Shown here: positions 13,029 through 64,000 of the stretch, in pieces
Layout of the letters: each line of letters begins with the position of its first letter
Numbering within the stretch: position 1 is the first letter of the stretch
From: Pelagomonas calceolata
Lineage: Eukaryota
Reading direction: 5' to 3'
DNA length: 64,000 nt
Assembly (NCBI GenBank): GCA_918797485.1
Contig: CAKKNE010000004.1
Span: 5,084,001-5,148,000 of the forward strand
The notes under the pieces: generated by a model
Told to the model about the DNA's origin: nothing
Databases searched by the model: none
Seen by the model: the letters and a program-made list of their open reading frames with translations, nothing else
Translations under genes and position numbers: made by a program

Positions 13029-13062
<34 letters not shown>

Positions 13063-27632: not shown

Positions 27633-27885
27633 GAAGTCTGTTGCATGCTTACTCGAGAAACTCGTCGCCGCGTTCCTCGCCTTGTAGTTTACCGTGGCGG
27701 CCGCCGGCGCTGCTGCCCGGGATCACTAGAAGACTAATATAAAGTGCGCACGGCACGCTTACCCGGAAGGGGGGAGCGCGCGCGCGCGGGGCAAGGTCAC
27801 GCCGATGGGGGGAAGGTGACGGCGGCGCCGCGCCCGGGACCGATTCCGGGGGCGGCGGCCGGGCCACCGGGAAGGGAGGCGGCGT

Positions 27886-30800
27886 CTACCCCGCCGGGGC
27901 GACGGCCGAGAGCTGCGCGCCGGTGCACGTCGTGCCCTCGTTCTCGCAGAACGCGGACGTGCCGACCGAGTTGCGCGCGGCCACGCGGACGTAGTAGCGC
28001 CGGTCCGGCGTGAGGCCGCTCACCGTCACGCTCGTGCTCGAGGTCGTCACGGTGTGCGTGTCGGTGCCGTCGAACAGGGGCGACTCGGACGCGGTAATCT
28101 CGTATTCAAGCAAGGCTGCGCCGCCCGTCGACTCGGGCAGCGCCCCGCCGAGCGCCACCGGGCACTCCGACGGGTTGGCGGCGAAAGCTGCACATGGGAT
28201 GCCGTGGTGAGGGACGCGCGGGTAGAGCCACGCGACGTCGACCTCGCCCTCGCCGCCGGGGGCCGCGCTCAGCGAGCGCGGCGCCCCGGGTATGACAAGC
28301 GAGGGCGCGGCCGACAGCGTCGCCGACGCGGCCCCGTAGCCGGCCGCGTTGATCGCCGAGACCTTGACGTAGTACGTCGTGGACGGGCTCAGCTCGTCGA
28401 TGGTGTACGAGAGCGCCACGGTTGCGTCGACGTCGACCGTGCCCTTGTGCGGCGAGGCGCTGAGGCTGTTGAAGCTCGAGCTCGTGTCCCACTCGACGCG
28501 GTACGCCGTGATGCTGTCGCCGCCGTCGTCCTCGGGGTAGCCGTAGCCCAGGGTGAGCATGCTGTCGCTCGTGACGCCCAGCACGACGTTGGACGGCGCG
28601 CCGGACTCCTCGTAGGGCGCCGCCGACGACGGCGCCGACCCCTGCGGCGTGCCGCAGCCCTGGCCGTTGCAGGCGGACACGCGCACGTAGTACCGCTGCC
28701 CCTTGTCGAGGCCGGAGACGGTCTTGTAGAACGGCGAGCCGCCGTCCAGGTAGGTGACCGCGACGCTCTTGACCTCGCCGAGGAAGCTCGCCGAGGTCGC
28801 GTACTCGACCTTGTACGACGTGATCTCGTCGCCGCCGTCCCACGTGGGGGAGCTGAACTGCGTCCGCAGCTGCGACGCCGAGACGGTCGAGAGCACGACG
28901 CTCGTGGGGGGCCCGGGCGTCGTCATCGGCTTGCTCGGGGCGCCGGCCGCCTGCGGGAGCGAGTACCCGACGCTGTTGACGGCGGTCACGCGCGCGTAGT
29001 ACTGCTGGCCGTTCACGAGGCCCGAGCCGTCCGACGGGACGACCAGGGTCGTGCCCGTGCACGACGCGTACGTGTCGCCCGACTGCACGAGCGTCGCGGT
29101 GAGCCGGGGCGCGTACCGGCCGCCGGAGCTGCCGACCGTGCCGTTCGCGTCGCGCAGGGAGTTGTCGTTGATCGACACGACGAAGTCGTTCGCCGCGCTC
29201 TCGGGCGCGGCGTCCAGGAAGGTGACGTACCACTCGTAGCCGCCCGCGTCGTCGGGGCCGTACCGGGCCACGTCGACGCCGAGGTCGAGCAGCTCGTCCA
29301 GCGCCTCGAGCTTCGCCTCGACCGAGCCGGACGCGCCGAGCCGCCCGCCCGGCGCGCAGTAGGCCCCGTCGGTCTCGCAGAAGATCTCCGACGTCGTCTC
29401 CGTGCCGCGGCCGCCGTGCACGCGCGTCAGCGCCGCGTTGCCCTTCGTCGTGCCGATGAAGGGGACGTCGTTGCCGGTGTCCCGGTCGGTGAGGTTGAAC
29501 CAGGCGCTCTCGGCGTCGATGGCCCCGCCCTGCATCCACTGCGTGGGGAACTTGGCCCGGTACACCTGGCCGCCCCACTTCTGCTCCGCGAAGGTCACGA
29601 GGTCGCCGTCGAAGAGGATGCCGGCGAGCGAGCCCGACGCCGTCACGCGGGCCGAGTTGTTCGCGACGCTGAACGTCCGGCATTCCAGCGACCCGGCCGT
29701 GCAGAGCCGCTCCGACGCGTAGATCTCGTCGCTCGACAGCGCGACGGCGTCGTAGGGGATCGGGTCCGTCGTGTAGGCCACGGCCGCCTTGGACACCTGG
29801 AGCTGGAACGTGCCGCCGACGATGGGCGACGTCGCGCCGACGCCCTCCGACGCGACCTTCCACACCGTCGGCTTGTTGGCCGTCGGGCAGTAGAAGTCCT
29901 CCCGGATCGGGTCGTCGAACGTGTCCGTGGGGTCCAGCTCGACGCGGTAGTGCGTGACGGTCGCGCCGCCGTCCGACTCGGGCTCGCCGAAGCTGATGGT
30001 CAGCGAGTCGGCGTCGCCCGGGTTGACGCCGACGGACACGTCGGTCGGCGGGTCGGCGATCTGCTGCGGGACCTCCGTGGGGGCGGCGGTCCGCGCGGGG
30101 CCCGCGCCGAACGCGTTGACGGCCGCGACGCGCACCGAGTACGCGACGCCCGGCTCGAGGTCCGTGATCGTGTACGCCAGCGCGTCGGCGTCGACGAGGG
30201 CGGAGCCGTAGCGCGCGGGCGCCTCGCCGACGACCGAGTCGTCGGCCTTGAGGCCCGTCACGTCGTCGACGGCGTTCTCCGCGCCCGTGATCGACGAGTC
30301 CGCCGCGCCGCCCAGCGCCGGGTGGTAGAGGTACTGCGCGTCCTTGAAGAGCGTCGGCTGGTCGCCGACGTGCGTCGCGAACGTGATGCTGTACTCGACG
30401 CCGCGCTCGCCCGCGCTCGGCGCGTACGGCCGCTCGGAGACCGCGACCTGCTTCACCGTCGGGAGCAGCTCCAGCGCCTCCGCGAGCTCCGCGGCCGTCG
30501 CCCGCGCGCTGACGTAGGGCGAGTAGGCCGAGCCGTCGAAGCCGAGCCGGAAGAAGCCGCGCACGGGCTGCGTCTCGTTCGTCGAGGCGTCGACGTCGCC
30601 GTAGATGCGCAGGACCTGGACCTCGGCGCGGCCGCCGGACCGCGCGCCCGGGCGCACCTCGGAGACCTCGACCTCGAGGTCGTCGCCGATGCTCGCCTCG
30701 GGGATGTTGATGGGCACGAGGTCGCCCTCGTTCAGGCCGCCCGGCGCGCAGTCCGCGAAGGTCACGGTCCAGGCGTAGCCGTGGTAGTTGTTCGTGCTCG

Positions 30801-33800: not shown

Positions 33801-36800
33801 ACGCGTCGCCCCGCCGCACGACGCGCACCGAGTCGAACATGCGCATGGAGATCAGGGCCTCCTGCACGTCCTCCGCGGAGGCGTCCCAGGCCAGGCACGT
33901 CGAGTTCCGCGCGAAGCGGCCGCCCGTGTTCGGGCCGCCGCGGTCGACGGTGACGCGGAAGGCGCCCTCGACGATCTTGGCCGTGGCGCCGACCACGATC
34001 GTCGCCTTGGCCGTGTGGGTGCCGAGGCCGCGCACGCCGTAGCGGTCCGGCGCCGGCGCGACCGTCACGTTCGCGCCCGCGGCCTTGCCGGCGTAGCCGT
34101 AGACCTCGGCGGCGCAGAGGTGCGCGCGCGGCGGGGGGATCTTCCCCTGGAAGCCGTCGTAGGAGATGGTCCAGGAGTAGCCGTAGTTCGACGACGCGGC
34201 GCCCGTGCCGCTCCGCGCGACCGCGACGTCGTCGGCCGACGCCGCGAAGCCCGTCGCGACGATGGCGGCCGCGACGTCCTCGGCCGGCGCGTTCCAGGGG
34301 ATGCAGGCCGTCGTGAAGTTGTCGTAGATCATGGGCCCCTTGTCGTTGTTGGCGCGCGGCAGCGTGAGGTTCAGGGCCCACGCGCCGCGCGTGACCGTCG
34401 CGAGGGCCTCGAAGGCCACGACGTCCGCGTCCGGGAAGTAGACCGAGAAGTTCCCGGCCACGACCTGGCCGTAGGCCGCCTCGATGGTCACCTCCTGCGT
34501 CTCGAAGATCTCGTCGGCCGTCGCCGTGAAGACCTGGACCTCGTCGACGTGCGTCGCCGCGAGCGTGAGCGCCTGGACCTCGTCGGTGTGCTCCGCCGTC
34601 GCCAGCGCCAGGCCGACCAGCTTCGGCGGCGGCGCGGCCGGCGCGCCGACGGCGGCCGGCGCGCTGAAGTTGCCGTAGCCCAGCGCGTTGCGCGCGGCGA
34701 CGCGCACCGAGTACGGCACGCCCGTCTTGAGGCCGCCCAGGGTGATGCCCGTCGCGGCGGAGCCCTGGACCACGTCGTCCACGACCGTCGCGCGCACGCC
34801 GTCCGCGAGCTGCGTCGCGTCGACGCTCATGGGCGGCTGGTCGCCGAGCGCCTCGTCGAACGCGACCGACACGTAGAAGCCGCTGACCTTGTAGACGCCC
34901 AGCTCGGTGCCGTTGGCGCCGCGGTAGGCCCCGGGCCGGAACGCGTCGTCCGGCCGGCCCAGCGGGAGCTGGGCCGGGAGGAACGCGTCCGTGCGGTGGC
35001 CGGCGCCCGCGCGCACGACGGCCGTGCTCACGGTCTCGGCGCCGTCGCCGGCGCGGTCCATGGCGAAGTTGCGCGACCACGGCGACGCGCAGTCGCTCAT
35101 GTTCACCTCGACGCGCGGCGCGTCCATGACGCCCACGAGGCCGTCGAAGTAGATCGAGTAGACGAAGCCGTTGGGCGCCTCGATGGCGTCCGTCGACCGC
35201 GTCACCGTCGTGGCGCCGGCCACGCCGAGGTGGTGCTCGATGAGGTAGTTGAGCTCGAGCTCGACGTCGGCGTCGCGCGCGTTCCACGCGAGGCACGCCG
35301 ACGTGTTGCCGTAGGGCAGCTCGCGCTGCGCGCGGGCGCCCAGCCCCGCGGCGCCGATCGAGACGCGGTAGGCCGGCGTCCCGCCCTTGGCCCAGCCGCC
35401 GCCGTCCGCGTCCTTGACCGTGATGGTCTGGACCGCGACCTCGGGCTCGCGCACCGCGAAGTACTGCGGCACGAGGAAGCCGTCCGCGTGGCCCTCGCCC
35501 TCGAGCAGGACCTTGGAGCCCAGCGTCAGCTCCAGCGGGTCGGCGCCGCCCCGCGCCTTCATGGACCCGGCCACGGACGCGCCGGGCTTGAGCGTGTCGC
35601 CGCACGCGTAGAGCTGGACGACCCACGTGTCGCCGACGGCGTGGCCGACGCCGCTGCGGAAGCGGAAGTAGACGCCGTCCTCGTCGAAGACCCCGGGGTT
35701 CGAGGGATGCTCCGAGCGCTCGATGGGCACCCAGGCCGTCCGGGCCAGCTGCGCCGCGTACGTCTTCCGGCCCTCGCCCTCGACCATGCGGCTGAAGACG
35801 TAGGTGTCGTTCTTCAGCAGCGTGCCGTTCACGTCGTAGACCGCCGGGGCCGTGATCTCCAGCAGGTAGGTCGCCACCGCCGGCACGCGGCTCGAGTCGT
35901 AGACCTCGAACTCGGCGTCGTCGAGGCCCGCGGCGTTGCCCCGGGCGTTGTAGTAGACCGTCTTCTCCTGCAGGGTCATGCCGTTGTGCACGGCGAAGAC
36001 CGCGGGCAGGTCGCCGGACATGAGGTCGCCCACGTAGTCCAGCTCGTAGGTGTAGCCCCAGGCCGTGCTCCCGTCGCCGAAGCCGCTGCGCGCCACGGTG
36101 ATCTGCGGGTGCGCCACCGTGAGGTTGCGGTAGGTCATGTTCAGCGCGTCCTGGATGCGCTCCTCGAGCACCTCCGCCGGGACGCCCCACTCGAAGCAGG
36201 AGCCGCCGTAGTAGTTCTGCTGCGCGCCGACCGTGTTCGCCGTGACGTGCGTGAGGTGGTTGAGGAAGAGCGAGAAGTAGCGGCCCGTCGCGGGCTTGTC
36301 CGTCTCGGCCTCGGCCGCCAGCGTGAGCAGCTGCACGGACCGCGAGCCGCCCTCGCGCGTCGTGGTGACGCGCGCGTCGCGCGCGCGGCCGCCGACGTGG
36401 GCCCACGAGGCCGCGCACTGGCCCGACGCCTCGTCGACGATCTCCAGCTGGTCCGCGTTCGCGAGGTGCGGGCCGACGAAGGCCACCTCGTAGGCGTAGA
36501 CGTCGCGGCCCCGCGTGACGGTCTTGACGGCGAACGCCGGCGCGCCGGCCAGCGACTTCCAGAGCTTCTTCCCGGCGCCGCAGCCGTCGGACGGCCGGAT
36601 GACGCCGCCGGTCGCGTCGCAGTCCACGGCCCGCTCCAGCTCGAGCTGGGCGGCCGTGCCGTGCGTCGCCGTCGCCGCGACCGTGTAGAGGCGGAACGCG
36701 TCGACCGACCCGCCGATGCGGACGCGGTCGCCGGGCGCGAGGAACTTCGCGACGTCCGCGGAGAGCTCGACCGTCGTCGAGTTGTGCACCGTCGTGGCCG

Positions 36801-39800
36801 TCGCCGCCAGGAGCTGCTCCGGGCCCGCCGCGTCCTGGCAGCCCGCCTCGGAGCCGACGGCCACGACCTCGATCTGCGGCGCGTTCGCGCCGAGGACGCT
36901 GGACGTGGCGCCGCCGTAGCCCGAGGCCGCGCGCGTGTTGTCCGGGCCGCGGAAGGTGAAGACGTAGGCGTAGCCGTGGCCGTACCGCCCCTCGCCGTCG
37001 CCCTCGCGCGCCACGGCGACGTGGCCCGCGTCGTTGGCCACGCCGTCGTTGTTGAAGTCGAAGGCCAGCGCGTCGAACGCCGCCTCGACGGCCGCCGCCG
37101 ACGCGCCGTAGGCGATGCACGCCGTCTCCCGGAACTCGCCCTCGTGCGTGACGCGGAGCTTGAAGAGGCCCTCGGTGTTGGCGTCCGCGTAGTAGACGTC
37201 GTCGGCGACGACCTGGACCTCCGTCCGGCCCAGCGTCGCGACGCCCAGCCCCGACTTGCGCACGGACACCGCGTGCTCGACCTTGAAGAGCTCGACGTCG
37301 TCGACCGAGAAGTGGACCTTGGCGGAGATGTCCTCGGTCAGGCGGAGGGCCAGGCCCTGGTACAGGACCTCGGCGACGGTGAAGACGCCGTCCGTGCCGT
37401 TCACCCGGACGCGGTCCCCGGGGAAGACCTTGCCGTCGAAGCGCGGCCGCCGGTCGACGTGGTCGTCGAACTCGTCGCGGCGCCAGAAGCGCGACGCGTT
37501 CGAGGCGAAGAGGAGCGTGCCCGCGTAGTGGTTGGGCGGGTCGTCGGCGTCCCGGTTGATGGGCCGCAGGTCCACCGTGACGTCGAGCTTGTGGTCCGTC
37601 AGCGACGGCAGCGCGTTCAGCGCGGCCTCGACCGCGGCGCCGTCGGCGCCCCAGTCGAGGCAGGGCGTCGTGAAGCGGCCGTACCTCAGGCGGAAGTACG
37701 CGCCGGACAGCGCGCCCCCGTCCAGGGCCAGCGCGATCTCCTGCCGCTCGGTCACGCCGCCCTGGACGACCGTCTGGACGCCGATGTCGAGGCCCGTGAA
37801 GTTCGACCCGGGCTGCTGCCTGTTGCCCCAGTCCTTGTGGCCCTGCTTGAAGCCCACGGGCCAGAGGCGGTTGCACGTCGACGAGATGAGCTCGAGCTGC
37901 GGCACGTCGCCGACGCCGACGCCCGAGTAGCCCGTCCCGAAGTAGATCGAGTAGAGGAACGCGTCGCCGTGCGCGCCGCGGCCCGACCGCGACACCTCGA
38001 CGCCGCCGCTCAGCGCGTCGAAGCCGTTCAGCGCCGCCGCGACGTCCGCCGCCGACGCGCCGAACTTGAGGCAGTCCGTCGTCTGCGCCGAGCCCGAGTA
38101 CATCATGCGCAGCCGGAAGAGGTCCAGCGACGCGTTGACGTGGTCCGGCGTCACGTCCGCGGCCACGTAGAGGCGCTGCACCTCGGCGCCGGAGCGGATC
38201 ACCTCGTGCGTCTCGCCGCCGACGCGGACGAACGCGCCCGTGGGCGCCGTCCGCACCAGCGACGCCTGGGGCGTGCCCACGACCGGCGAGTCCTCCTTGT
38301 AGGCCAGCAGGCTGCCCAGCCGCGTGGCGCCGTCGGCGGCCGCGCCCCGCGCCGCGAAGCCGCCCCGGTCGCCGCCGAGCCGGAAGACCTCGCCCGGGTT
38401 GAGCGCGTCCGCCAGCACCGTCTCCAGCGTCCCGCCCGCGCCGAAGGTCCCGTCGTACCGCAGCGACGCCGTCGCGCCGTCCCGGTCGACGGTCGCCCAG
38501 ACGCCCTCGACGCGCTGCAGCGCGACGTCCGACCGCGCGACGCGCAGCTCGCCGACGGTGTCCATCTGCTCGAGCACGTACTCCATCTCGTCGTGCGCCT
38601 CCTGCCACTCCATGGGCTCGGACCACGCGCCGCGGACGCCGAGCGCGAACGCGCCCGCGAAGGGCGTCGAGCCGGACCGCAGCACCGTGTTCACGACCTG
38701 GGGCACGTTGCCCTGGAGGCCGTGGCCGTCGACCGTGATCGAGTCCAGGTTGCCCGCGCCCGGCGGGAACGTGAAGCCGCGGTACGCGCCCGGGTTCTTG
38801 GTGAACTTGACGCGCCACTCGAGGCCGCCGCGCTCGCCCTCGGGGGCGACGGCGACGGCGCCCCAGCCGCCCGACGCGGCCGAGGGGTAGGACAGCCGCT
38901 CCACGGCGACGCCGCCCACGGTCAGCATCTCCTCGAGCTTGCGCTCGAACCGCTTGGCGGACTCGTTGTACGCGACGCTGCGCGCGCCGAACGGCGCCTC
39001 GAAGTCGATCTCGAAGGCGCCGGACATGCCCTCGCTGCCCTTGGTCGTCTCCCAGACCGTCGGCACGTACACGACGCCGTTCGTGGCCGGGTCCTGCGTC
39101 ACGTTCAGGTCCACGACGTCGCCCGACCCGGGCGGCACCTGCTCGTGGTTGTAGACGAAGGTCACGCGCCACTCGACGACGCCGTGCCGGCCGTAGACCT
39201 CGCGCGAGACGTTCACGACGCGGCGGCCCAGCGACGTCGTCTCGAGCCACTGCTTGACGGAGCCGGCGCCCTCGCCCGGCGCGTTCCACTGGAGCTGGCT
39301 CGCGCCGAGGGGGTCGTCGCCCAGGGCCGAGAGGGACCCCTTCGGGTCGTCGCCGCCGACGTGGAAGCGCGTCAGGTTGCCGCGCGTCACGACGCCGTCG
39401 ACGCACCCCGAGAAGGTGCAGTTGTTCGGGTTCGTGCGGCCGTCGACCTCCGTCCGCGCCGTCACGTTCTGCAGGTCCGTCTCGAAGGGGTTGCAGCCGC
39501 CCTTCTGGTAGTGCCGGAACCGGTCGGCGTTCGCGCCGGAGCCCTTGGCCGTGTAGTTGAACTGCAGGCCGTCCGCGGACTCGGGCGGCGCGACGTCGCC
39601 CGCGCCCCGGAACGACACGCGGTACTGCCAGGCGTTGGGCGCCTCCGTCTCCGAGAAGTGGCGCGACACCGACACGTTCGCCAGCGCCCGCCGCACGAAG
39701 GCGCGCGCGGACGCCTTGCCGATCCGGGCGAGCGCGTGCCGCACCTGGGCGTCCGTCGCGTCGTAGGGCAGGCAGTCCTCGAAGAACTCGCCCGCGAAGC

Positions 39801-42800
39801 CGATGCGGTAGGACGCGCGCGCGAAGTCGTCGCGGTCCGTCCAGGCCTTGGCGGCGTGGTAGCTCGACGCGTTCGAGCCCCAGCCGGCGTACTCGGGGTC
39901 CCGCACCGCGAAGGACTGCACCTCGTCGCGGCCGGGCGGCGCGGTCCACTTGTCGGCCACGTCCAGGAGCGTGACCTTCTGGCAGTCGTAGGCCGCGCCG
40001 CCGCTCCCGGCGCTGCAGTCGCCCGCGAGCTCCGACGCGTCGAAGCCGCCGAACTTGGGCACGTCGCCGGGGCTGTTGCACCGGTCCTCGACGGTGTCGC
40101 GCTGCTCGCAGTCGCCGAAGCGGCCCTCGCCGCTCGCGCCCGCGTCGCGCAGGAAGGTCACGGTCCACGTGTGGCCGCCGTTGTTGGCGCCCTCGTTGAC
40201 GGGCGACCGCGTCACGAGCACGTCGCCGACGTTGGGCATCTTCTCGAGGATCTCCTCGACGCTCGTGCCGTCGCCGCCGCTCTCGAGGACGCCGGCCTGC
40301 GCGTTGTGCCGGATCGGGTCCGACGTGTAGCTGCCGCGCATGTTGATGATGTCGTGGCCCGTCGTGTCCAGCGTGACGCGGAAGGACCCGCCGAGGGGCT
40401 CCGTGCCCTTGACGTACTCGGCGACGCTGCACGCGTCGGCCGGGAGCGCGCCCGACGACGAGTACATGCCGCTGTCGACGCAGGAGATCGGGGGCATGTC
40501 GCCGCAGTTCTTGCCCCACTCCTTGCTGACGCCCGTCGCCCACGTGTCCGTCCACGTCGTGGCCTCGCCGACCCAGTTGCCCGCCATGGAGCCGTCGTCG
40601 GCGTGGACCACGGTCGGGTCGCGCCACGACGCCGAGTCGAAGGTGATGGACCAGACGTAGCCGCCCACCTGCGTGCCGCCGCTCAGGTCGGGCCCCGTCG
40701 TCATCGGGCCCGAGCGCGACACCTTGACCTTGGACGGGCTGATGGACGAGAGCATGTTGAGCTGGTTCTCGACGTCCTGGGCCGAGGCGTCCGTCGCCAG
40801 CATGCCCGTCGTGTAGCCGCCGAAGCGGAGCTGGAACGAGCCGTAGAGCTGCGCGCCCTCGAGGTCCGTGACCGCCGTCGCCGCGGCGCCCGGGCCCTGG
40901 AGGAGCGTGGACGTCGCCGTCAGGAGCGGCACGTCGCCGCCGACCTCCGCCGACCGGTACGTGATCGAGTAGGAGTAGCCCGCGGCGCGGTTCGGCGACC
41001 CCGACCGCGCGACGTCGACGACGTCGCGCCCGGCGAACAGCTCGGCCTCGAAGAGCTCCTTGAACTCGGCGGCCGTCAGCGCCGTGTAGTGCGACGTGTT
41101 GATCACCGGCAGGTTGTTCTGCGCCGAGCAGAGGTCGCCGAGGCACAGGCCGTACGTGCCGCCGACCTGGCCGCCGTCGCGCGCCTCGCCCGTCGAGTCC
41201 TGCGCGAAGGTGAACGAGTCCGAGACGCCCTGGAACGTGTCCGCCGCGCCCGAGTTCTCGTCCTCGACCTCGACGACCACGGCGCTCTTCCCGACGTCCG
41301 GGTGCGGCGGCGCGAGCGGGTTGAGGCCGAGGCCGGACGTGCCGTAGGTGACAGTCGTGTTCGCCTCGACGCCCATCTGCGGCACGTTGCCGACGGCGCT
41401 CAGGAACGTGACCGTCCAGGCGTAGCCGCCGGCCCAGCGCGTCTCCGTCGACGGGACGTAGGGCGTCCGCGCGACGTCGACGAGCCCGAAGGCCTTGGAG
41501 GCGCCGTCGTCGGCCTGCACCCGCTCGAGGATCTTCTCGAGCCGCGCGGCCTCCTCGTTCCAGCGAATGGCCGTCGTGTTGTAGAGCTTGGGCTTCTTCA
41601 CGCGCTCGTTCGGGAACCGCGTCGAGAGCGCGAAGTCGCCGTCGGCCAGCGAGCCGTCCTGCAGCGTCGTGACGTTGCAGATCAGGGCCGACGCCGGCTG
41701 GCCCGCCGACGACGACGACATGAACGCCGTGTCGCAGCGCATGGGCTTCAGGTCGCCGGGCTGGCCGAGGAACGTGACCTCGACCTCGAGGCCGACGTGC
41801 GTCTTGTTCATCCACACCGCCCCGGGGTCGGAGACCGCGAGGAGGTTCGCGGCCGACTCGATCGTCGGCACCGCGCGCAGCGACGACGAGAACGTCGCCG
41901 CCGACGAGTCCACGGGGATCACCGACGTCTCGCGGACGCGGTCGACGGAGCACGCCTGCGACACGCCGGAGGCCAGCGTGGGGTCGCTGTAGAACGTGCC
42001 GACCTCCGCGTCCGTGGCGTCGGCCGTGGACCCGGTCCACGGCGCGGACAGGCTGACGTTCGCGTAGGGGTAGGCCAGCTCGTCGCGGTCGAAGATCGCG
42101 TCGATCTGCACGTAGGCGTCCGTCGCGCCGCCGACGCGGATCCAGTCCCCGACGTAGATGTCGTCCCGCAGGCCCCAAAGCTTCGCCGAGTCGGACCCCG
42201 CGACGAGGTTCACGACGTCGAGCTTCTGCGTCCGGGCCTCGCACTCGTACGAGAGCTTGATGGAGCCGTCGGGCTGCGCGCCCTCCTGCACCGTGAACGC
42301 GTCCTGCTTGTCGAGGTACAGGGCCCCGATGTCCTCGGGGCAGCTCGGCGAGCACGACGCGTCGCAGCACGTCGCGAGGGTGCCGACGATGCCGGCGCCC
42401 AACGGATATGCGCCAGTGGTCGCGCCCGTGCCGTCGTTGGCCTCGTAGCCGCCGGTCACGTGGACGGTGGTCGGCTCCTTCGAGCTGACGACCAGGGCGG
42501 GCACGTTGCCGCGCAGGTGGCCGCCCGTGAACTCGACGCGGTACTCGACCTTGTAGACGCCGCCAATATCGTTTTGGCCGCCGACGAACTCCTTCGTGAG
42601 CGTCACGTTGAAGCCGCGGTAGCCCTCGTCGCCCGTGGCGCCGGGCGTCTGCGGCCCCTGGGCGTCCTCGATGAACTTCACGCCGTTGATCGTCATGCCG
42701 TTCAGGTGCTCCTCCATCTTGTCCTGGCCGATGAGCGCCCCCGAATCGAATAAATTAAATTCCTTGGCGACGCAGTCGTTGGCCGGGTCCGCGTCGCAGG

Positions 42801-45800
42801 ACAGCGTGCCGAGCGACGGCATGTCCTCGTCGACACCGCGCTGGCAGAAGTTGACGCCCTCGGCGCTGCCGCAGTCCGCGATGTCGAACTTGACGCTGAT
42901 TTTTTCCAGCGCCGGCACGTTGGCGAGCTGCGCCTCGAGCGCGGCCTTGGTCGCGGCCACGGTGCCCTGGTTCGTGTTGCAGTCGAGGAGGTAGAACCCA
43001 AAGGTCTGGACCTCGTCGACGCGCTTCACGGCGTAGGTGATGCGCTGCTTCTCGGGGACGGACGCGACCGTCGACCGGACGATCTGGACCTCGTCCTGGA
43101 ACGTGGCGGCCAGCGTCAGCGTCTGGACCTCGTCGACGTCGTTCGCCGTCGTCGTCACCGTCTGGACCTCCGGCGTCACCTCGTCGGCGGACGTCGTGAT
43201 GGTCTGGATCTCGTCGATGCCGTCGATGTTCGTGCGCACGGTCTGGACCTCGTTCTGCACCCAGACGCTGCCGCGCACGGACTGGACCTCGGAGTGCACG
43301 TCCGCGTCCAGCCCGACGAGCTGGTACTCGGACACGACCGGCGCCAGCGCGACGTCGGGCGTGCCGAAGGCCTCGTCGGCGTCGAACTCGACGCGGAACG
43401 CGTCGATCGTCGCGCCGCCGTCCTTGGGCGGCACGGACCAGGCCGCGTAGATCGACTCGGCGTCGACCGCCGGCGCGATCGCCTCGCTCGGCGGCGTGCC
43501 CGGCACGCCGTCGAGCGTCGTCGCGTACGCGGGCTCCGTGGCCGCCGCCGGCGACGCGCCCTCCGCGTTGAAGGCCGTGACGCGCACGTAGTACGTCTTG
43601 CCGCGCTCGAGCACGCGGCTCTCGACGCCCGTCAGCGGGTCCCGCCCGCCGATGAGGTAGGCCGTCGCCGAGGCCGGCACCATGACGCGCTCGGCCGGCG
43701 ACGAGAAGTCGTCGCGCACGTCCCACTCGACGGCGTACTCGGCGATCGCCGCGCCGCCGTCGCCGCCGTACTCGCAGCCCGGCGTCGCCGACGGCGCGCC
43801 CCACTCGACCTGGAGGCCCACGCCCGACGTGACGTCCAGCGTCGGCGCCCGGGGCGGCCCCGGCGTCCGCACCGTGCCGACGGCGCTGCTCGGGCTCGTC
43901 GCGGCGAACGGCGAGTAGTCGTAGCCGTTGTAGGCCGCCACGCGCACGAAGCGGGGCACCGACGCGGACACGGCCGCGATCTCGATGTCGTAGCACTCGG
44001 TCTCCGCGCCCGGCGTCGCCGCGACGCTCGCCTCGTAGCCCGACGTCTTGATGTTGCGGAAGTCCTCCGACACGTCCCACTGCACGAGGTAGCGGACGAC
44101 GGCCTGGCCGCCGTCGCTCGCCGGCGGCGCCCAGGCGACGCGCAGCGCCGTCGGCTCGAGGGCGTACAGCTCCGCGGTCCGCGGGACCGAGGGCGCCTCG
44201 ACGGGCGCGATCGCGCCCGTGACGATGGGCCCCTCCTGGCCGAGCATGCCCGCCTCGGCGATGGACTCGCCGTACCACGCCTCCGACCCGTCGCCCGAGC
44301 CGTCGATGCCCGGGCCCGTGTAGGCGCCGCGGCCCTCGTCGGTGATCGCCGCGACGCGCACGAAGTAGCCCGTGCCCGAGTCCAGGCCGGCGATGGTGTG
44401 CTTGATGGCGGCGCCCGCGACGACCTCGCTGCCGTAGTCGGCCGGCGTCGTGCCCTGCTCGAACGTCGCCACGCGCGCGGCGGCGTCGGGGCCCGTGAGC
44501 ATGTCGTCCAGCGGGTAGATGGGCGGCACGTCGCCGCGCGGGTGCCAGAACTTGACCTCGTAGTTGTAGCCGTTGTTGTTGACCGTGCGGACGACGTCCA
44601 CGTTCGAGATGGTCGTGAGGCCCTCGAGCGCGGCCTCGACCTCGGCGGCCGTGGCCTCGCACGAGAGCGGCGCCGTGGTGTGGCCCTCGAAGCCCAGGCG
44701 GAAGGTGCCCCGCAGCGGCGCCTGGCCCGGCCGCACGCGCTGCGCGCGCAGCGTCGGCGCCGTGCCCGCCCAGAGGTCCGACTCCCGCGCGTCGAGGAGC
44801 GGCCGCGGCCCGACGAAGCCCACGAACTCGATCGTCCACTCGTAGCCGTGGTCCCAGCGGTAGAGCTGCGCGCCGCCCGTGTCCTCGGAGATGTCCGAGC
44901 CCCGGAAGTTGAGCACGCTGGCGGCGTCGTCCGCCGTGCTCTCGCACTCGGCGCCGTCGACGTCGGGGTCCGTCTCGCTGTGCACGCGCAGCTCGATCTT
45001 CGTGGTGGTGCCCATCTTGAACTCGCCGACGCGGAGGACCTCGCCCGCCAGCATGATGACGCTCCGGCCCTCGTCCTCCAGCGCGGCGGCGAGCGCGTTC
45101 CCGTTGCCCTCGTTCAGCTTGATCGTGCACCCGCCGTGCCCGATGTAGCCCTTGTAGCCCCGCAGGGCCCGCATGGACAGGCGTCGCGTGACGCGCACCT
45201 CGCCCGACGACCCGAGCCGCTCCAGCGCCTCCTTCACGGAGCCGGCGCCCTCGGCGGGCGCGTCGACGGGGATCGGGTCCGTCGTCTCGCCGCCGATGGA
45301 CAGCGTGAAGTGGCCGTTGAGGCCCAGCTCGTCCGCGCCCGTCGTCACCGTCTGGACCTCCGTCACGCCGTCGCTCGCGGAGAGCGTGACGACCTGCGTC
45401 TCGGGCGTGCCCGGCTCCGAGTACCACTCGACCTCGTAGCCCTGGATCTTGGCGCCGCCGTCGTCCGACGGCGGGGACCAGCGCGCGATCAGCGACGTGC
45501 CGGAGCCGACGGCGACGCTGACCTTGTTCGGCGCCGAGGCCTGCGTCTTCGGGACGGCCGCGACCTCGGCCGAGACGGGCCCGTAGCCCGCCCGGTTGTA
45601 GGCCGTGACGCGCGCGTGGTACTCCCGGCCCGCCGTCAGGCCCGAGAACGCGTACGCGAAGGCGTCGCTGCCCGCGACGCGCTCCGTGACGTGGACCTCG
45701 GCCGTCGTCTCGCCGAAGTTCGTCGTGCCGACCATGAGGTTGGCGTCGGCGGCGCCCTGCGTCAGCGTGTGCCGCTGGTGCGTGAACGTGACCGTCCACG

Positions 45801-54800: not shown

Positions 54801-57800
54801 CGTACTCCTTCTTCATCTCCATGCGCGTGACCTCGACGTCGTCGATGCCCACGAGCGTCTCGAGCTCGGCCTCGACGGCCGTCGCGTCGTCGTCCCAGAC
54901 CATGCAGCCGGGCTCGCCGCCCGCCTCGGTCGCCGCCGTCGTCTCGTCGCCGAACTTGAGGCGGAAGCCCGAGGCCGAGACGGACCCCGCGGTGAGGTTG
55001 CAGTGCTCCGGGAAGCCGGCGCCGAGGGCCGGCTGCATGGCGTCGCAGTAGATGCGGACCTCCTGCACCTCGTAGGCGGCGTGCCGCAGCGCCTGGGCCG
55101 TGAGGCCGGCCTCGAGCATGGCGTCGTCGGCTTGCGCCAGCGGGACCGTCGTGTCGGAGAACTCCTTGGCGGGGTCCGTCGACACGCGGAAGGTCTCGCC
55201 CGTGCGCGGGTGGCCGACGCGGATGTAGTCGCCGCGCTTCAGGCCGTAGGCGCGCCAGTCGATCGAGGCGTCGCCGCCGCGGTTGCCGCGGCGCGGCGCG
55301 AGGGCCGCGTCGCCGATGGCCGGTCCCACGGCGCCCGAGAGCGACGTGTCGAGCTTGTAGAGCGGCGCCTGGCGGAGGTCGTCGCCGCGCGGCCCGCCGT
55401 CGTAGTACGCGGGCGTCCACGGGTCGTCGGCCCGGCACAGCGGCAGGGTCTTCGGGCCGTAGGCCGCGTAGTAGTACGTGTCGACGGTGCTGTCGGTCTT
55501 GAGGGCCTCCGTCGGGTAGGACAGGGACTGCTTGCCGCCGCCGGTCACGTTGTGCTCCACCAGGTCCGACTCGACGCAGACGCTGAAGGCCTGGCCGCCC
55601 ACGCGCAGGTAGTCCCCGCGCGCGAAGTACTTGGACAGGTCGAGGCGCTCGTCGAGGCCCGGCGCCGGCCGCGACCGCGTGACGACGGACCCGCCGTGGT
55701 CCACGTTCACGAGCGTCCGGTTCGGCGCGTCCCGCCCGCGGCCCCACCACTTGGTCTCGGCCTCGTCGAAGAGGACCCACGAGCCCTCGAAGTCGCCCAC
55801 CGACAGCGAGAACTGGGCGCCCGCCGTGAACGGCCGCGTGTGCGCGTCCGTCTCGATGCGCTGGACCGTGTAGTCCACGGCGTACTCCTGCACGAGCGTC
55901 GAGCCGTTCGGGAACGCCGCCGACTGCGACGACTCGACGACGTACGCCGTCACGGCGTCGCCGTTCGCGTCGGCGTCCTGGGCGTACTGCACGCGGAGCA
56001 GGTCCTGCGTGTGCCGCGACAGCTTGACGAGCGTCCGGAGCTCGGACGGCTCCTCGGCGGGGACGCCCGCCGCGACGCGGCTGGCGGCGCCGGCGCCCTG
56101 GTCCGTGAGGGCCGTCACGCGGAAGCCGTACTCGGCGCCGGTCGTCAGCGAGAGCATCGTGACCTCGGTCGCGTCGCCCGCGACCGTGACGTTCGTGTGG
56201 TTGTGCGGCACGACGCCCTTGTACTGCTCGACCACCTGCAGGTAGGGGGCCGAGACGCCCCGGTTGTCGTCCATCGCAGAGCTCAGGCGCAGCCCGAAGG
56301 CGTTGGCCACGAGCGGCGGCAGGTCGCCGACGTCCGTCAGGAACGTGACGGCCCAGACGTAGCCGTTGACGCGGCCGGCGTTCGGCGCCGGGTCCGTCGC
56401 CGCCGCCCCATGGAGGCCGTTGGCGGGGCTGGCGTTGGCCGGGTCGGCCGACGAGTCGTCGTCGAAGACGCGCGAGACGCGCACGTCGCCGAGGCTCGCG
56501 AGCGCGTCGAGCGCGCCCTCGACGTCGGCCGCGGACGCGTCCCAGGCCAGCGGGATCGTCGTGTCGCGGTGGTAGAGCGTCGCGCCGATCGCCGTCGCCC
56601 CGGTGTAGACCTGGTCCACGTAGAGGTGCGTGCTGTTGAAGACGCGGTTCTCCGCGACCGTCAGCGTCTGGCACGCGTCCGCCGCGGCGCAAACTTTAAT
56701 TTCGTCGCGGCGCCCGAGGTGCGGCGTCAGGTCGACGGACGTGCGCAGGTACTGCCGGCCCTGCGTCGCCGCGACCGTGCCCGGGAGCGGCTCGTCCACG
56801 TCGCCGAACGCGAGCGTGAACGTGCCGCCCGTCGCGTTGGTCCAGCGGTTGGGGACGTCGACGCTCGTGTAGGTCATGACCTTCTGGACCTCGGCGTGGC
56901 CGTAGAGCGAGCCCAGCGCGCTCGGCACGGCCTGCTTCGTCATGCGCTCGACGACGTAGCCTGATACGCTGCCGCCCGGCACGGTCGCCGGCTGCCACGC
57001 GACGCGCACGGAGTGCGCCGACGCGGGCGTCGCCGTCACGGCGCCCGGCGCCGCCGCGAGGCCGCGCACGAGCAGCGACGACGGGAGCGTGTCGACGAAC
57101 GAGCCCATGCCCTTGGCGGCGTTCTCGCAGGCCACGCGCACGTGGTAGTGCTGGCCCTCCGTCAGGCCCTCGATGCGGTAGCGCGCGCCGACGACGCGCA
57201 GCTCGCCCGCGAACTGGTGGTTGCCGTTGGCGGCCGAGCCGTAGGACGCCGCGCGCGCGTGGCCCGGCTCGACGAAGATCTGGGAGGACGCGCCGTTGAT
57301 CGCCGTGGCGTAGAGGTCGCCCGACCGGACCGTGAAGAGGTACGCGATGTCGTCGTCCGGGAAGGTGACGTAGAACTTGGCGCCCGCCTCGAGCGCGCGC
57401 CCGTCGTCGTTCTTGCCCGTGAACGTGAAGACGCCGTCGTCCGCGTCGAACTGCGTGACGCAGTCCGCGCAGCGCCAGTCCGCCGCCGCGACGACCGCGC
57501 GGCCCAGCGGCTCGCCGCCGGGGCCGCCGGCGAAGTCCGGCCGCGTGTCCCACTGCACCTCGAAGTTGACGACGGCGTCGCCGCCGTCGAAGACCGGCGC
57601 GCCGACCTCCACGAGGATGGCCGTGGGCGACGCGAGGTACGCGTTGGGCGCCTCGACGAAGCCGCCCGGCGCCAGCGCGCCGGGCAGGCCCGGCGCCTGG
57701 CGCGGCACCCGGACGACCGGCGGCCGCGTGAGGCGCCGCTGGCCGTAGCCGAGGCGGTTCCCCGCCGCGACGCGCACGTGGTACTCGACGCCCGGCAGCA

Positions 57801-60800
57801 GCGGCGGGTGCGAGCCGCGCGCCGGCCCGCCGATGGCGTAGGCGAAGTCCATGCCGTCGCCCTCGCCGACGGGCACCTCGACGAAGCGGTAGTCGCCGTC
57901 CCGGGGCAGGTGGGCGGCCTCCGACGCGTTCCGGTGGATGGTCACGTTGAAGTGCACGAAGTTTGCCTGACCCTTGGTGCCGCGGCCGCCGAGCTCGACG
58001 ACCGTGGACGCGTCCGTGTGGTACGTGAGCCCCTCGTCGAAGGGCTCGAGCATCGACATGTTCCCGATCACGTCCACGAACGTGATGTCGTAGTTGACCG
58101 ACGACGGGTCCCCGATGTCGGGGATGCTGACGTCGACCTCGCCCACGTTCGGCATGTTCTCGAGGATCGTCTTGACGTCGTAGGCCGTCGCGTTGCCCAC
58201 GAAGATGCGGGCCGACGTCGCGAAGGTCTTCACGACGGCGCGCTTGTCGTTCGTCGTGTTGAGCGAGAGGCGGATCGTGCCGTCGAGGCTGCCCGCGTTC
58301 TCGCCCGGCTTGCGGACGCGCACGCGCTGCACCACCGGGGCGTAGGCCGACCAGGGGATCTTGGAGTACTCCACGAGGTAGGACGTGACGCGGTCGCCGC
58401 CGTCGCCGTAGAGGTCGACGGAGTCGTTCCGCGGCGGCGCCCAGCGCACGAGGAGCTGCGAGCCCACGTCCTGCACCGTGTGGTCGTTGCCGTCCAGCGC
58501 CTCCAGGGACGGCGCGATCGGCGGGTCGGCCGACGTCATGGGCGTCGCCTCGAACGTCTCCGTCACGTCCGAGTAGCCGAGCGAGTTGTGCGCCGAGAGG
58601 CGCACGTAGACGCGCTGGCCGCGGCAGTCCGCCCCGTTGGCGCAGGTCAAATTCCACCACTGCTCCAGGTTCGACGAGTGCGGGTAGGGCGCGCCCTTGA
58701 CCGCCTCCTGCGACCCGTCGATCGTGTCGACGGACGTGCGGTTGTTGGCCACGACGACCGTCTGGTAGTCCTTGGTGAAGCGGTCGTCCATGGCCCACTC
58801 GACGCGATATTTGTCCACCGGCGCGCCGCGGCGCCCGCCGTTCTCCCACGAGACCATGAGCGACGCGGCCGTGAACGACTCGGGGCCCTCGAGCCCGTCC
58901 GTCACCGAGAGCGGTCCGCCGAAGCGGACGCGGCCCAGCCGCGCCGACGTCGACCGGCCCGCATTCTGCGCCAGCGACACCAGCGGCGGCTTCGGCACCG
59001 CGCGCGCGCGGATGATGTAGCTGTACGGCGGCGCGCGGCCGTCGTACGCGTCGATCTGCCGCAGCGGGTCGGCCAGGAGGAACACCTTCGCATCGTCCGC
59101 GATTGTAGCGGCGTCCGTTCCGTCGGCGCCACGCTCTACAGTCAGATCGTTAGTAGCAACGCCAGTCACTTTCAGAACCTCGTTGCCGATCAGGATGTAA
59201 GAGGGATTAGTAATACCATGCGAAGGATCTACCTCAATAGTGGTATCAGTAGCAATGTAAGTTGCACCGGGGTTGTTGATAGCTGTCTCGACCCCGGCCT
59301 TGACGTACTCGAGCGCCGGCGAGTGGTCGCCGGCGTTTTTGCCCTCGGAGCACTCGACGACGCCCTCGTAGGGGCACGTCGCCACGGCGCGGCGGCGCCC
59401 CTCGTAGGTGTCCTTGATGTCGTGCTGCACGTACCAGGACGGGATGCCCCTGGGGCCGCCGGCGCGCTCGTACGTGTACCACGCGGGCGGCGCCGCGCCC
59501 TGGCGGTTGATCGCGCGCACGCCGACGGCGTAGTAGTTGCCCGCCGTCAGGTTCGTGATGCGGAACTCGCGCGCGTCGGGCCCGACGAGCCGCGACCACG
59601 AGCCGCTGTACGGGAAGTCGTGGTCGGTGCTGTCGCCGAGCGGCGCCGAGCCGCGCTGGAACTCGGCGTTCGTCTTGTTCCACTCGACGGACCAGCCCGT
59701 GAGCGCCGCGCCGTGCGCGTCCTCCACGTCGCCCCAGGTCACGCGCAGCGACGTGGGCGAGTCGCGCTCCGCGAAGACGCGCGCCCACTCCGTGAGGCCG
59801 GGCGGCGCCGCGGCCGCGATGGCGCCCCGCTGGTCCTGGTAGTCCTGGGAGCTCTCGACCGGCGCCGCGGCGCCGACGCCCACGTCGTTCACCGCGCTCA
59901 GGCGCAGGAAGTAGGGCGTGCCCGGCGTCAGGGCCTCGGACGAGTGGTCGCGCGTCACCGAGTGGAAGACGTTCGTCGTGCGCACGTTCTCCAGGAGGCC
60001 CAGGGCCTTGGACTTGGTGAAGTTCGAGCAGACCCACGGCAGGCCGTGGTCCGCCGCCGTCAGGCGCGACACGATCTCCAGCTTGGAGACGGGCCAGCGC
60101 GAGAAGGCGCCGCCCGTGAACGTGACGCGGTAGCGGTAGCCGCTGCCGACCGTCGTGTTCGAGTCGCGGGACACCTCGACCGTCTCCTCGAAGGGCAGGT
60201 CGTCCATCTGCTGGCGGATGTGGTCCCGGACGTCGGCCGCCGTCGCGTTCTGCCGCAGGCACGTCGTCGGCGGCGCCACGACGTAGGCGTCGACGACCAT
60301 CTTGCCCGTGTGCGCGTCGACGTGCGCGCCCTGGCCCAGCGTGAAGGCCGTGTGCAGCGTCACGTTGCCGCCGCGGTCCGAGAGCGCGTCCTCCTGGAAG
60401 CCCGACGTCTGGTTGATGCCGTAGAGCTTGCCGTCGACGCCGCCGATGCGCACGAAGGAGCCCTTCGTCAGGACGTCGCCGCCGTAGGCGTAGTTGTCGC
60501 CCAGGTCCGAGACGTTGACGAACTCGGCGCGCGACGTCCCGGGGTTGACGACGAGCCGCGTCCGCGGCGACGAGGGCCCGGCGTAGAGCAGCTTGTAGGA
60601 GCCCCCCGTGAGCGGCTCCGAGCCCTCGGAGTAGACGCGCACGGACTGCACCTCGGCGCCGAGCTCGAAGGAGCACGGAACGCCGGCGCCGACGTAGCCC
60701 GAGACGCCGTCGGCGCCGTAGCCCTCGCACTCGAGGGCGACGTCGTCGCCCTGGAGCGCGCGCCAGTCGTACGAGTGCGTCGCGTCGTCGGGGAAGCTCG

Positions 60801-63800
60801 ACGACTCGGACCACTCGATGCGGTAGTTGCCCGCCTTGGCGGGCTCGTTGCCGCCGTGCGTCGTTTGCGCGAAGCCGTTCAGGTCGACGCGCGGCTGGTT
60901 GAAGACGACGCGCAGGCGGTCGGGGTACTCGCCGGGCGAGACGGACGCCGAGGCGTTCACCGGCGGGCCCAGGAGCTGGTCGGCCGGCTGCGCGCTCGCG
61001 GGCGTCGAGACCCGGGCGTCGCCGTAGCCCTTGGCGTTCCAGGCCGACACGCGCACCCAGTAGCTCCGGCCCGGCGTGAGGCCCCGGATCTGGAACTGGT
61101 GGTCTGAGAGGACCGTCAGGCCCCGCGCCGCGCTGGCGTTCACGGCGACCTGGCCGGCCGTCGTCGACGGCACGCTCGCGAAGCCCGCGCCGAGGTCGCT
61201 GATCGTGCTGAACTCGGGGTTCGAGTCCCACTCGACGAGGTACTTCTCGACCTTGTGGCCGCCCGACAGCACCGGCGGCGCCCAGGCCACGCCGAGGTTC
61301 GTCCGCGACACCGAGAACAGCTTGACGCGCGTCGGCGCCGAGGGCTCCCGGTACGCGGGCTTGATGGCGTAGCCGTCGGCGGCCGGCGCCGCGGCCAGCG
61401 TCACGTTGATCCCGTCGAACTTGGCGTCCGACTTCTGGCCGTAGCGGGCCTGGTAGTTCGAGATCTCGAGCGCCGCGTCGCGGTCGCCGCCGAACTCGAC
61501 CTCGTAGCCGAACTTCGTGTCGACGAGGTCGTAGACGTCGCCCATGTTCGCCGTCGACGCGTAGTCCGACGAGTCCCAGCGCCGCACGAGGACGGCGCCG
61601 CACTCGAGCTCCGTGAGGTCCATGATCGCGGCCGCGACGTCCGACGCCGTGGCGCCGGCCGCGATGGCCGCCGTCGACTCGGAGTTGCCGCGCGCGGACA
61701 CGTGCAGCATGAAGTCCGTGGAGCCCTTGCCGACGTCGATGCGGTAGACGGGCGCGTCGGCGCGCGACGCCGCCATGCGCGGCTCCGAGTAGCCCGCCGC
61801 GTTGTGCGCGAGCACGCGCACGTAGTAGGCCGTGCCCGTCGTCAGGGCCTCGAGCACGTGGGCGTAGCGGCCCTGGTCGTGCTCGAGGTCCTCGACCGGC
61901 ACGCGCGCGAAGCCGGTCGAGTCGTCGAAGCTCTCGTCGAGGTCGTACTGCACGAGGTAGTGCGTCACCGGGGCGCCGCCGTCGTCGTCGGGGGCGGCCC
62001 AGGACACGGCCAGGGACGTGGGCCCGGCGACGCTCACCTTGGGCGCGACGGGCGGCGTCGGCGCGACGTCGGCGGGCGCCGCCGTCAGCGCCGCGACGGC
62101 CGGCTCCGACCACGCGTCGGCGGCGTGCGTGTACGCCGCCACGCGCGCGTAGTGGGGCCGCCCCGCGGCGAGCCGCCCGTCGCCCACCGACACCCAGCGC
62201 GGGAGCCCGCCCTTCTGGGCCTCGGTGACGTTCGCGAACGGCGACGTGCCCTTGAGGTGGCCGTGCGCGCCGACGGCCTCGTTGAACTGCGTGCCGCCGC
62301 CGCCCGTGTCCACGAGGAGCGACGGCACGTCGCCCAGCGCCGCGTCGAACGTCACGCGCCAGACGCGCGCCGCGTGCTGCACCGGCTCCGTCGTGCGGTG
62401 CTCGACGTCCCGCACCGAGACCATGACGGGGCCCAGCGTCTTCAGGTCGTCGAGGGCCGTCGCCATCTCCTGCGCCGAGGCGTCGGCGTAGATCTTGTTC
62501 GACGTCTGGCCGCCGTACGACAGCCGGAAGTAGCCGTTGACGTCGGCGGCCTTGGCGCCGACCGCGACCTCCTGCACCTCGGGCCGCATCGCCACGTCCA
62601 CGGACCCGAGCGGGCGGCGGTAGATGCCCAGCGTGCCCTCGTCGAAGGCCGGCGCCAGGCCCCGCGTCACCTCCTCGACCTCGGCGGCGACGGCCGCGCC
62701 GCCGGCGTCCCGCAGCGCGTCGACGGAGACCGCGAGGGCGGGCACGTCGCCGACGTTCGTCCGGAAGACGACGTCGTAGGACGCGGCGCCCTTGGTCACG
62801 TCGACCTCGCCGATCGTCGGCAGCGCCTCGAGCGCCGTCTTCAGCCGCTCGCCGGACGCGCCCGCCGGGATCGGCGGCGTCGTGGCGCCCTGGAAGGCGA
62901 GCGCGAAGGCGCCGACGATGTCCGTTGCCTTGAACTTGACGCGCTGGACCTCGTGCACGGCCTCGCTCGAGTCCCACTCGACGCGGTACGCCGTGACGCG
63001 CGCGCCGCCGTCGTCGACGGGCGGCGTCCACGTGACGTTCAGCGACCCCTCGCCGAGCGGCTTGATGGCGACCGTGCGCGGCGGCGACGGCGCCGCCGCC
63101 GGCGTCAGCGACGCGGGCGTCGCGTGCGCCGGGAGGCCGTAGACGCTGCGCACGCCGTTGTACATGGCCACGGACACGGCATAGGGCTCGCCGGCCTCCA
63201 GGTCGTCCAGCATGAAGACGTACTGGCCGTCGGCGTCCCGCTCGAGGTCGCTCAGCCGCACCTCGGCCTCGCCCTTGAGCGGCGAGTCCATGGCCGGCAC
63301 GCGGCCCGCCACGACGACGCTCACGGCCACGCCCGTCGTGGCCTGCTTGTTCGGCGAGGCGTAGAGGCGCGTCGAGTCCGCCTGCAGCGGCGGCACCGTG
63401 CCCAGCCGCTCGAGGAACACGATCGTGTACTCCTTGCCGTCGGTCGCCTGCGCCGCGCCGACGAACAGCTCGCCCGTGCCGATGGCCTCGAGCGCGGCCT
63501 TGACCTCGGCCGCGGACGCGCCGGCCTCGAGGTAGGGCGTCGCCACGAGGCCGTCGGGCGAGTCGTACTTGAGCGCGAACGAGCCGCGGAGCGACGCGTT
63601 CTTCGCGTACGCGAGGACGGTCTGCACGCAGAAGCCGTCGTAGCGGTGCACGAGCGTGTCCGCCGTGAGGGACGCGTCCGTGCCCGTCATCGTCGTCGCC
63701 GCGGCCGACCCGTCGAGCGTCGCCGCGGCGAGCTCCTCGACGAGCTTGTAGTTCGAGGCCAGCGACCGGTTCATGGCGCTCACGCGGAGCGAGGGCAGGT

Positions 63801-64000: not shown

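Follow-up and report, generated by a model that had tools for sequence, protein, structure and literature searches.

The window analysed here is a stretch of 64,000 nucleotides of Pelagomonas calceolata, read on the forward strand (contig CAKKNE010000004.1, positions 5,084,001 to 5,148,000). Its G+C content is 72%, against the mean of 63% given in a passage of the published Pelagomonas genome paper (PMC9481584). The window contains, on the minus strand, the 3′ part of a giant gene coding for FN3 and EVQ domains, with the following features (aa, residues counted from the window edge):

63,999-27,886, minus: giant FN3/EVQ gene, 3′ part, 12,037 codons followed by TAG, with no stop within
59028..59343, minus: whole lineage-specific insert of about 105 residues (about aa 1553-1658), cassette plus host-coded linkers, limits approximate
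59089..59289, minus: cassette, very probably hypervariable (aa 1571-1637, about 66 codons), with alien codon use and a predicted barrel
59163..59199, minus: conserved cassette core, 37 bases, found at the DNA level in three or more further transcripts from one cultured sample
44290..45543, minus: nested unit, one FN3 domain split around two EVQ domains and a barrel (aa 6153-6570, AF2 model)
34639..43497, minus: one FN3 domain split by an insert of about 2,950 residues with 15 EVQ cores (pairing of N- and C-halves)
42997..43329, minus: nine EVQ first strands stacked at intervals of about 13 residues, opening the 2,950-residue insert
34486..34581, minus: second EVQ stack, three strands
36616..36801, minus: third module, one copy among about 11, a barrel-like insert that is old and follows the codon use of the host
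27886..28914, minus: three C-terminal FN3 domains and the stop, without membrane anchor

The giant frame runs open into the edge of the window, and its 5′ end lies beyond it. With the position-specific base composition of the frame, about 197 stops would occur by chance; only the terminal one is seen. The third-position G/C content (GC3) is 99.2%, and the longest open frames of the opposite strand (+, 27,820-63,999; 4,977 and 4,736 codons) are best read as shadows of this near-100% GC3 codon bias. Over its in-window part, the protein weighs 1.26 MDa. PolyA reads from one cultured sample (runs X21 and X24, of which about 6% and about 12% of the reads were used) were placed over 45,001-64,000. 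They fall, at low depth, in 30 of the 30 bins of that region, with mates mostly oriented as for a minus-strand RNA and with no joint among those listed. Most placed reads are partial fits (350 of 5,058 in X21 are 99% alike), and some 200 cross-mapping reads have ends that fit the last FN3 domains, which is in keeping with 3′ bias. The raw depth, 3-6 for the giant, drops to zero directly downstream of the cassette. The giant gene is transcribed, with reads covering the tested 45-64 kb part. A sequence-only reading of the same DNA had described an open frame of more than 36 kb and 12,000 codons; the stop-free length, the GC3, the transcripts and the colinear orthologues (see below) all bear it out, and we regard it as virtually certain that the giant is a real gene. 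The lack of a C-terminal transmembrane or GPI signal, claimed in the same reading, agrees with a best 19-residue Kyte-Doolittle mean of 1.56 overall and of 0.36 in the last 80 residues.

Other genes of the window were recognized by eye: a single-exon ORF of about 1,470 residues, Ski2-type helicase-like, with N-terminal tandem repeats (8,750-13,258, minus), a nucleotide-sugar-transporter-like gene (24,240-25,570, minus) and a sigma-70-like gene (26,150-27,740, plus). An exact-sequence look-up of the helicase-like ORF in a protein collection gave no match. The neighbouring genes contain repeat introns with shared inverted-end motifs (at 3,063; 18,431; 24,605-24,790; and 26,770-26,875), which we take to be, in all likelihood, pelagophyte introner elements. 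None of these four repeat-intron motifs is present in the giant ORF.

The sequence-only reading had noted diverged repeats and a recurring third module. In the frame we count 25 FN3 N-halves, 26 FN3 C-halves and 46-48 EVQ cores; the third module has about 11 further copies, and both peptides quoted for it are found in frame. Of the 25 N-halves, 11 find their C-half at a distance of more than 200 residues and 12 at no more than 200 (one mis-paired); two are unpaired. The inserts within the FN3 domains hold the EVQ cores, and some enclose the third, barrel-like module. In the AF2 model of the nested unit (418 residues, 20-row alignment, pLDDT 72, pTM 0.48), the two ends superpose as a single FN3 domain (Z 12.5, rmsd 2.0 over 93 residues, model range 1-418), and split FN3 halves are predicted to refold as one domain. 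In the 2,950-residue insert, nine of the 15 EVQ cores, downstream of the nine-strand stack, have no first strand of their own. The stack would form an arm in which the chain goes out as single strands and comes back completing each domain. With an FN3 domain length of about 3.5 nm, the backbone of about 27 FN3 domains would measure roughly 95 nm and carry stiff EVQ arms, the longest of about nine domains. The cassette was also compared with the third module; that the two are the same module is not supported (probability 2.5%).

Outside the cassette, 14 A/T-ending codons cluster at 42,400-43,000 (aa 7,000-7,200), in the innermost domain of the nine-strand stack; the longest arm is predicted to have its tip there, and a second site of variation may lie at this point. 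Another 11 occur at 28,100-28,300 (aa 11,900-11,970), within the last FN3 domain, in the loop that bears cysteines.

The giant adds a member to a stramenopile family that is known (the oomycete "Titin") but has scarcely been described. Colinear orthologues include P0002, P0003, P0004 and P0006. In the homologue search, five of the 15 matches are colinear relatives; the other 10 are animal twitchin-type FN3 proteins. Colinearity extends over thousands of residues, at 40-62% identity with proteins of the pelagophyte Aureococcus anophagefferens and at about 28-37% with proteins of Pythium, Phytophthora and two further proteins. The survey of homologues that had been suggested with the sequence-only reading has, in this way, relatives to offer in both oomycetes and a pelagophyte. 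The oomycete and Aureococcus "Titin"/PA14 FN3 giants (KUF76226.1, KAJ0394096.1, KAH8055104.1) have the same FN3 and EVQ content as the Pelagomonas giant, although their database names give FN3, PA14 and filamin only; unlike it, those aligned are without the cassette. Residue 1 of the window part aligns with residue 2,910 of P0003 and residue 4,775 of P0002. Judged from the orthologues, about 2,900-3,700 more codons likely lie upstream, for a whole protein of at least 15,000 residues, and PA14 and filamin domains are likely to be found there as well, as is the signal peptide, which falls beyond the window edge. Scans of metagenomes, viral contigs and flanks yielded nothing on the 5′ end or on further alleles. 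Because it is colinear with oomycete genes, the FN3/EVQ scaffold is, on sequence grounds, old in stramenopiles. Animal titin and twitchin have FN3 repeats in common with the giant (PF00041 in six of six pieces), but they carry I-set Ig domains and a kinase near the C-terminus, and neither is present in the 12,037 residues of the giant, C-terminus included. No description of the cassette or of the family architecture was found in the literature searched, which most subscription papers lie outside.

The EVQ profile matches virion proteins of phage Bxb1: the tail-tip protein gp23 (E 2e-34), the capsid (E 2.5e-6) and the tail tube (0.22). The resemblance to actinobacteriophage tail proteins, which the sequence-only reading had given, is recovered here, and the families matched by the repeats extend beyond the eukaryotic ones. 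Bxb1 is found by the profile only, and a single EVQ copy gives no match among phage records. With the structure model, Bxb1 CTE-like domains are the top Foldseek matches. The profile also matches an RRM protein (0.0018), probably by chance or at the fold level, and, weakly, the Ochromonas protein OCM6 (0.051). No Pfam family was found for EVQ or for the cassette.

The lineage-specific insert sits in the linker between two FN3 domains. It is absent from the five orthologues aligned (P0003, P0004, P0005, P0006, P0098); in a sixth, P0154, the gene model skips the region. In the cassette, 34 of 66 codons end in A or T, versus 68 of 11,971 elsewhere in the giant (p = 4e-55), and 27 of these 34 end in T. 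In the model of the cassette, 65 residues exceed pLDDT 90, and the predicted fold is a six-stranded beta-barrel of the kind that phage tails carry. Compared with 48,161 chains, it has its six best structural matches in virion proteins of phages, namely capsid, baseplate, tail and tailspike (Z 8.3-11.2), with F1-ATPase and EF-Tu-type barrels among the weaker ones. Viral models matching at E ≤0.001 number 78, and the top three Atlas clusters are viral. By sequence, 13 of the 13 matching phage records are cyanophages, at 41-56% identity; there is no match at the DNA level among 50,697 phage records. Against PDB sequences, the cassette gives a single hit, at E 1.7. The module is widespread (173 representatives, many phage-, bacterial- or protist-surface-like). 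The presence of the barrel in bacterial-looking proteins and in proteins of other protists as well tempers the case for a phage donor; we incline towards a phage origin of the barrel. In P0030, P0031, P0033, P0038 and P0073, surface proteins that are probably from protists, 6-11 barrels of the cassette's family occur in tandem.

Two simple accounts of the cassette were set aside. An intron is unlikely, given that the cassette is represented among the RNA reads and that none of the RNA joints leaps over it, although no contig of the RNA extends across a border by 31 bases. A local misassembly is also unlikely: a culture DNA contig over 58,344-60,793 is identical to the window, although the window may itself derive from that run.

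In three wild runs from separate studies (X14, X15, X18), the flanks assemble as single contigs, with depths of about 34, 34 and 24-73, that stop at the borders of the cassette (59,085-59,092 and 59,278-59,282). The interior is present in the same runs as pieces of depth 3-16 with unlike ends, which carry as many as 24 changes and include a 3-base gap that keeps the frame. In X15, the deep upstream contig extends 142 bases into another version of the cassette. Over the flanks of X14, the variation amounts to 53 changes in 18,386 bases (0.29%). Compared with the window, allele P0022 has 151/153 and 321/324 identities outside and 47/64 inside the cassette, P0177 150/153 and 89/89 outside and 38/65 inside, and P0017 323/324 outside and 40/46 inside. 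The complete cassettes of P0022 and P0177 are 73% and 58% identical to that of the window, between flanks that are about 99% identical; the partial alleles P0017, P0020 and P0024 have flanks 98-100% identical, and P0028 has two modules ahead of a window-like right flank. The frameshifted P0018 and P0021, which leaves the locus early at an odd point, are excluded from the identity counts. The alleles P0017 and P0022 are on contigs of 303 kb and 14 kb; those of P0028 (502 bp) and P0177 (2,151 bp) are short metagenome contigs that could be chimeric. We hold with high confidence that the cassette is truly hypervariable. The wild contigs also contain small bubbles at 58,700-58,970, just past the downstream border of the cassette, which might mean that the flank is touched by conversion tracts or linked variation.

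The alleles look mosaic. The left part of the cassette groups the window with P0017 (8/12) and P0022 with P0177 (10/13), whereas the loop groups the window with P0022 (5/6) and P0177 with P0171 (8/8). Left, loop and right parts that group differently form the pattern that recombination leaves; a formal test would need more than the five alleles compared here as proteins. In the culture, the DNA contig and the RNA reads contain the window's allele only, and for that reason there is no sign of fast switching within the clone, at an RNA depth of 3-6 and with contigs that drop rare variants.

The module is not confined to the giant. At least three other culture transcripts, with about 3,740, 270 and 180 reads (the first to be compared with the 3-6 of the giant), carry the 37-base core between unlike ends, and this core is a candidate recombination anchor. 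Pelagophyte-type proteins, recognized as such by shared motifs and translated repeat introns rather than by their labels, bear the module singly or in tandem, with borders like those of the cassette. P0027 is a second FN3/EVQ giant, with the module in tandem. P0171 is an OCM5-type tubular mastigoneme protein (E 4e-12), and the mastigoneme-type, module-bearing P0055 matches all six listed chains of 9UFE (best E 1.5e-9). Allele P0177 and P0171 have in common an exact stretch of 12 residues across the variable loop, of which the central 9-residue motif is found in these two only, among the proteins compared; P0171, P0093 and P0137 may come from other pelagophyte species. Paralogous modules are 65-67% identical to the tail-sheath module of cyanophage S-SZBM1. 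In a tree on 72 columns, too short to settle the origin, the giant-gene alleles fall outside a 17-member pelagophyte clade. An exchange of pieces of the cassette among these copies seems rather probable. In P0029, P0043, P0045, P0048 and P0078, other pelagophyte-type genes, translations of repeat introns interrupt barrel modules; introners have therefore inserted into those copies.

N-glycosylation sequons take up 102 of the 356 Asn residues of the giant, a doubling (p 2e-13), and cysteine spacings of ≤25 residues number 47 against 30 expected (maximum 45 in 1,000 shuffles). Sequons are enriched also in P0002 and depleted in P0003, P0004 and P0006; in P0004, 3 of 331 Asn are in sequons (about 19% expected), the opposite of the excess in the giant. 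Excess and depletion may both be signs of ER passage. We infer from the composition of the chain that the giant passes through the ER and bears N-glycans and disulfides, and an extracellular location is, in our view, quite probable. Whereas animal titin and twitchin are cytosolic, the sequons and clustered cysteines of the giant hint at secretion. The sequence-only reading had proposed a cell-surface fibre or scaffold assembled partly from prokaryotic or viral modules. The location and the link between EVQ and Bxb1 are supported; an assembly of the scaffold from prokaryotic or viral parts is less well supported, as the FN3/EVQ scaffold is colinear with oomycete genes and old in stramenopiles, and the EVQ domain may have been transferred in either direction. 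The split and nested FN3 domains, the known stramenopile family and the variable cassette with its close phage relatives go beyond that reading.

Within the extracellular space, the tubular hairs of the anterior flagellum are a location that we find slightly better than evenly probable. A passage of a brown-algal preprint, citing the Colpomenia flagellar proteome, treats a conserved "flagellar titin" thought to join mastigonemes to the axoneme (bioRxiv 10.1101/2024.02.19.579948); from the name and range of that titin, the giant is probably the same protein. Passages of PMC3471859 and 10.64898/2026.09.11.750887 treat mastigoneme proteins rather than the giant's family. A direct likeness of EVQ to mastigoneme proteins, in whose central alpha/beta domain a relation might be sought, is weak, with the OCM6 match above and, for P0171, E 3e-4 in a one-sequence search and a profile probability of 1.3%.

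Our preferred explanation, to which we give somewhat more than an even chance, is that of a secreted giant scaffold with nested side branches, in which a phage-like barrel is varied by recombination with alleles and with copies in hair proteins. The giant would enter the ER, be glycosylated and end up exposed alongside the tubular hairs, as a fibre with branches. A phage-type barrel would have been inserted into the giant and the hair proteins in the pelagophyte lineage, and crossover or gene conversion at the conserved core and the borders would shuffle segments between alleles and between loci. Many versions of the cassette would persist under selection from a binder of the surface, most plausibly a virus.

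The giant could instead be a general surface or theca fibre, or an adhesin, with no flagellar role; the cassette would vary, and its modules would be held in common, simply as in surface genes. The vegetative cells of Aureococcus are non-motile, and Aureococcus retains an orthologue; the PA14, filamin and FN3 content of the orthologues likewise suits an adhesin. Against this stand the cassette module and border motifs of mastigoneme-type proteins, the restriction of the named orthologues, in a small sample, to stramenopile lineages with hairy flagellate stages, and the "flagellar titin" of the preprint passage (10.1101/2024.02.19.579948). We consider a non-flagellar fibre unlikely, though it is the first alternative to keep in mind.

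More doubtful still is a cassette without benefit, a mobile in-frame insert that the host tolerates, that has moved from one surface gene to another and that ectopic gene conversion scrambles. Such an insert would be lineage-specific, would keep unadapted codons and would recur between similar borders, at times as tandem copies (P0027, P0028), in several host genes that are unrelated to one another, as is the case here. However, the complete alleles retain the frame and the barrel core while the loops vary, the host genes seen are all of the surface type, and a search for transposon-like ends at the cassette (terminal repeats, target duplications) gave none that is convincing.

That the variability is an artefact, with paralogue repeats breaking and mis-joining de Bruijn contigs in metagenomes, we judge very improbable. 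The 37-base core is indeed common to paralogous transcripts, some allele contigs are short, and P0021 departs from the locus oddly. But shared repeats raise the depth, whereas the window-like depth falls from about 34 to 3-7; the divergent alleles on the 303-kb (P0017) and 14-kb (P0022) contigs have intact flanks; the culture, which contains paralogues too, assembles straight through the cassette; and a chimeric join would need a common stretch in both loci anyway. An excess of T-ending codons, as in the cassette, is characteristic of the targets of diversity-generating retroelements (DGR), but a DGR variable region is largely refuted: where adenine-only substitution would be expected, the alleles show gaps that keep the frame, tandem copies, substitutions affecting all four bases and a segmental mosaic.

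The preferred explanation, that of a scaffold with a recombining barrel, bears on largely open questions, namely which receptors the viruses of eukaryotic phytoplankton use and how hosts vary them. A hypervariable cassette of 200 bases in an otherwise 99.7% constant gene is a candidate site of virus-host conflict, and it can be typed with one amplicon across existing ocean samples. The cassette also suggests that a structural domain passed recently from phage to alga and entered flagellar-hair proteins. Independently of the cassette, FN3 domains that close over inserts as long as 2,950 residues, with an out-and-back arm nine deep, would be a route to branched megadalton fibres.

The comparison with known systems is instructive at several levels. 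The Bxb1 units are described, in a passage of PMC13252515, as CTE-like domains, three of them in gp23. In both EVQ profile and fold, those of gp23 (9D93), capsid (9D9W) and tail tube agree with the domains of the giant. In gp23 (PDB 9d93_Ma, 270-609), three EVQ first halves are followed by the second halves, and nesting is present in the phage too. The giant, on the other hand, is a eukaryotic protein that has its 46-48 EVQ copies within loops of FN3 domains, and in its long stack the nesting follows the first strand alone. The barrel inserts of cyanomyophage tail-sheath, tail-fibre and baseplate proteins have the same predicted fold as the cassette, with identities that reach 67% to the paralogous algal modules; they belong to virion genes, whereas the cassette is in an algal nuclear gene.

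With the tubular mastigoneme proteins OCM1-6 (PDB 9UFE), the giant shares the cassette module, carried by pelagophyte OCM-type proteins. OCM proteins have cysteine-rich EGF-type modules, also seen in the cassette-bearing P0055 and P0045, whereas the in-window part of the giant has no EGF family match, and the giant is more than 15 times longer. The brown-algal "flagellar titin", as far as the preprint passage describes it, is likewise a conserved titin-like stramenopile protein tied to mastigonemes; it would link the hairs to the axoneme, whereas the studied part of the giant looks extracellular.

The variation itself has parallels further away. In the boldest reading, which we rate as less likely than not, a common ocean picoalga would have captured a barrel that decorates phage virions and placed it in several hair proteins, among them a megadalton scaffold with nested domains. 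By shuffling barrel segments among these genes it would maintain, across the population, a repertoire of surface variants, in a process resembling antigenic variation and driven by viruses or other binders. Segmental gene conversion varies the surface proteins VSG of trypanosomes, vlsE of Borrelia and pilin of Neisseria, and exon shuffling varies ROCO-LRR proteins in Ectocarpus. As in the cassette, variable segments lie there between conserved anchors, and the alleles are mosaic. In contrast to VSG, vlsE and pilin, the host here is a free-living picoalga, the variable part is one small domain in a constant giant, and the partners seen are expressed genes.
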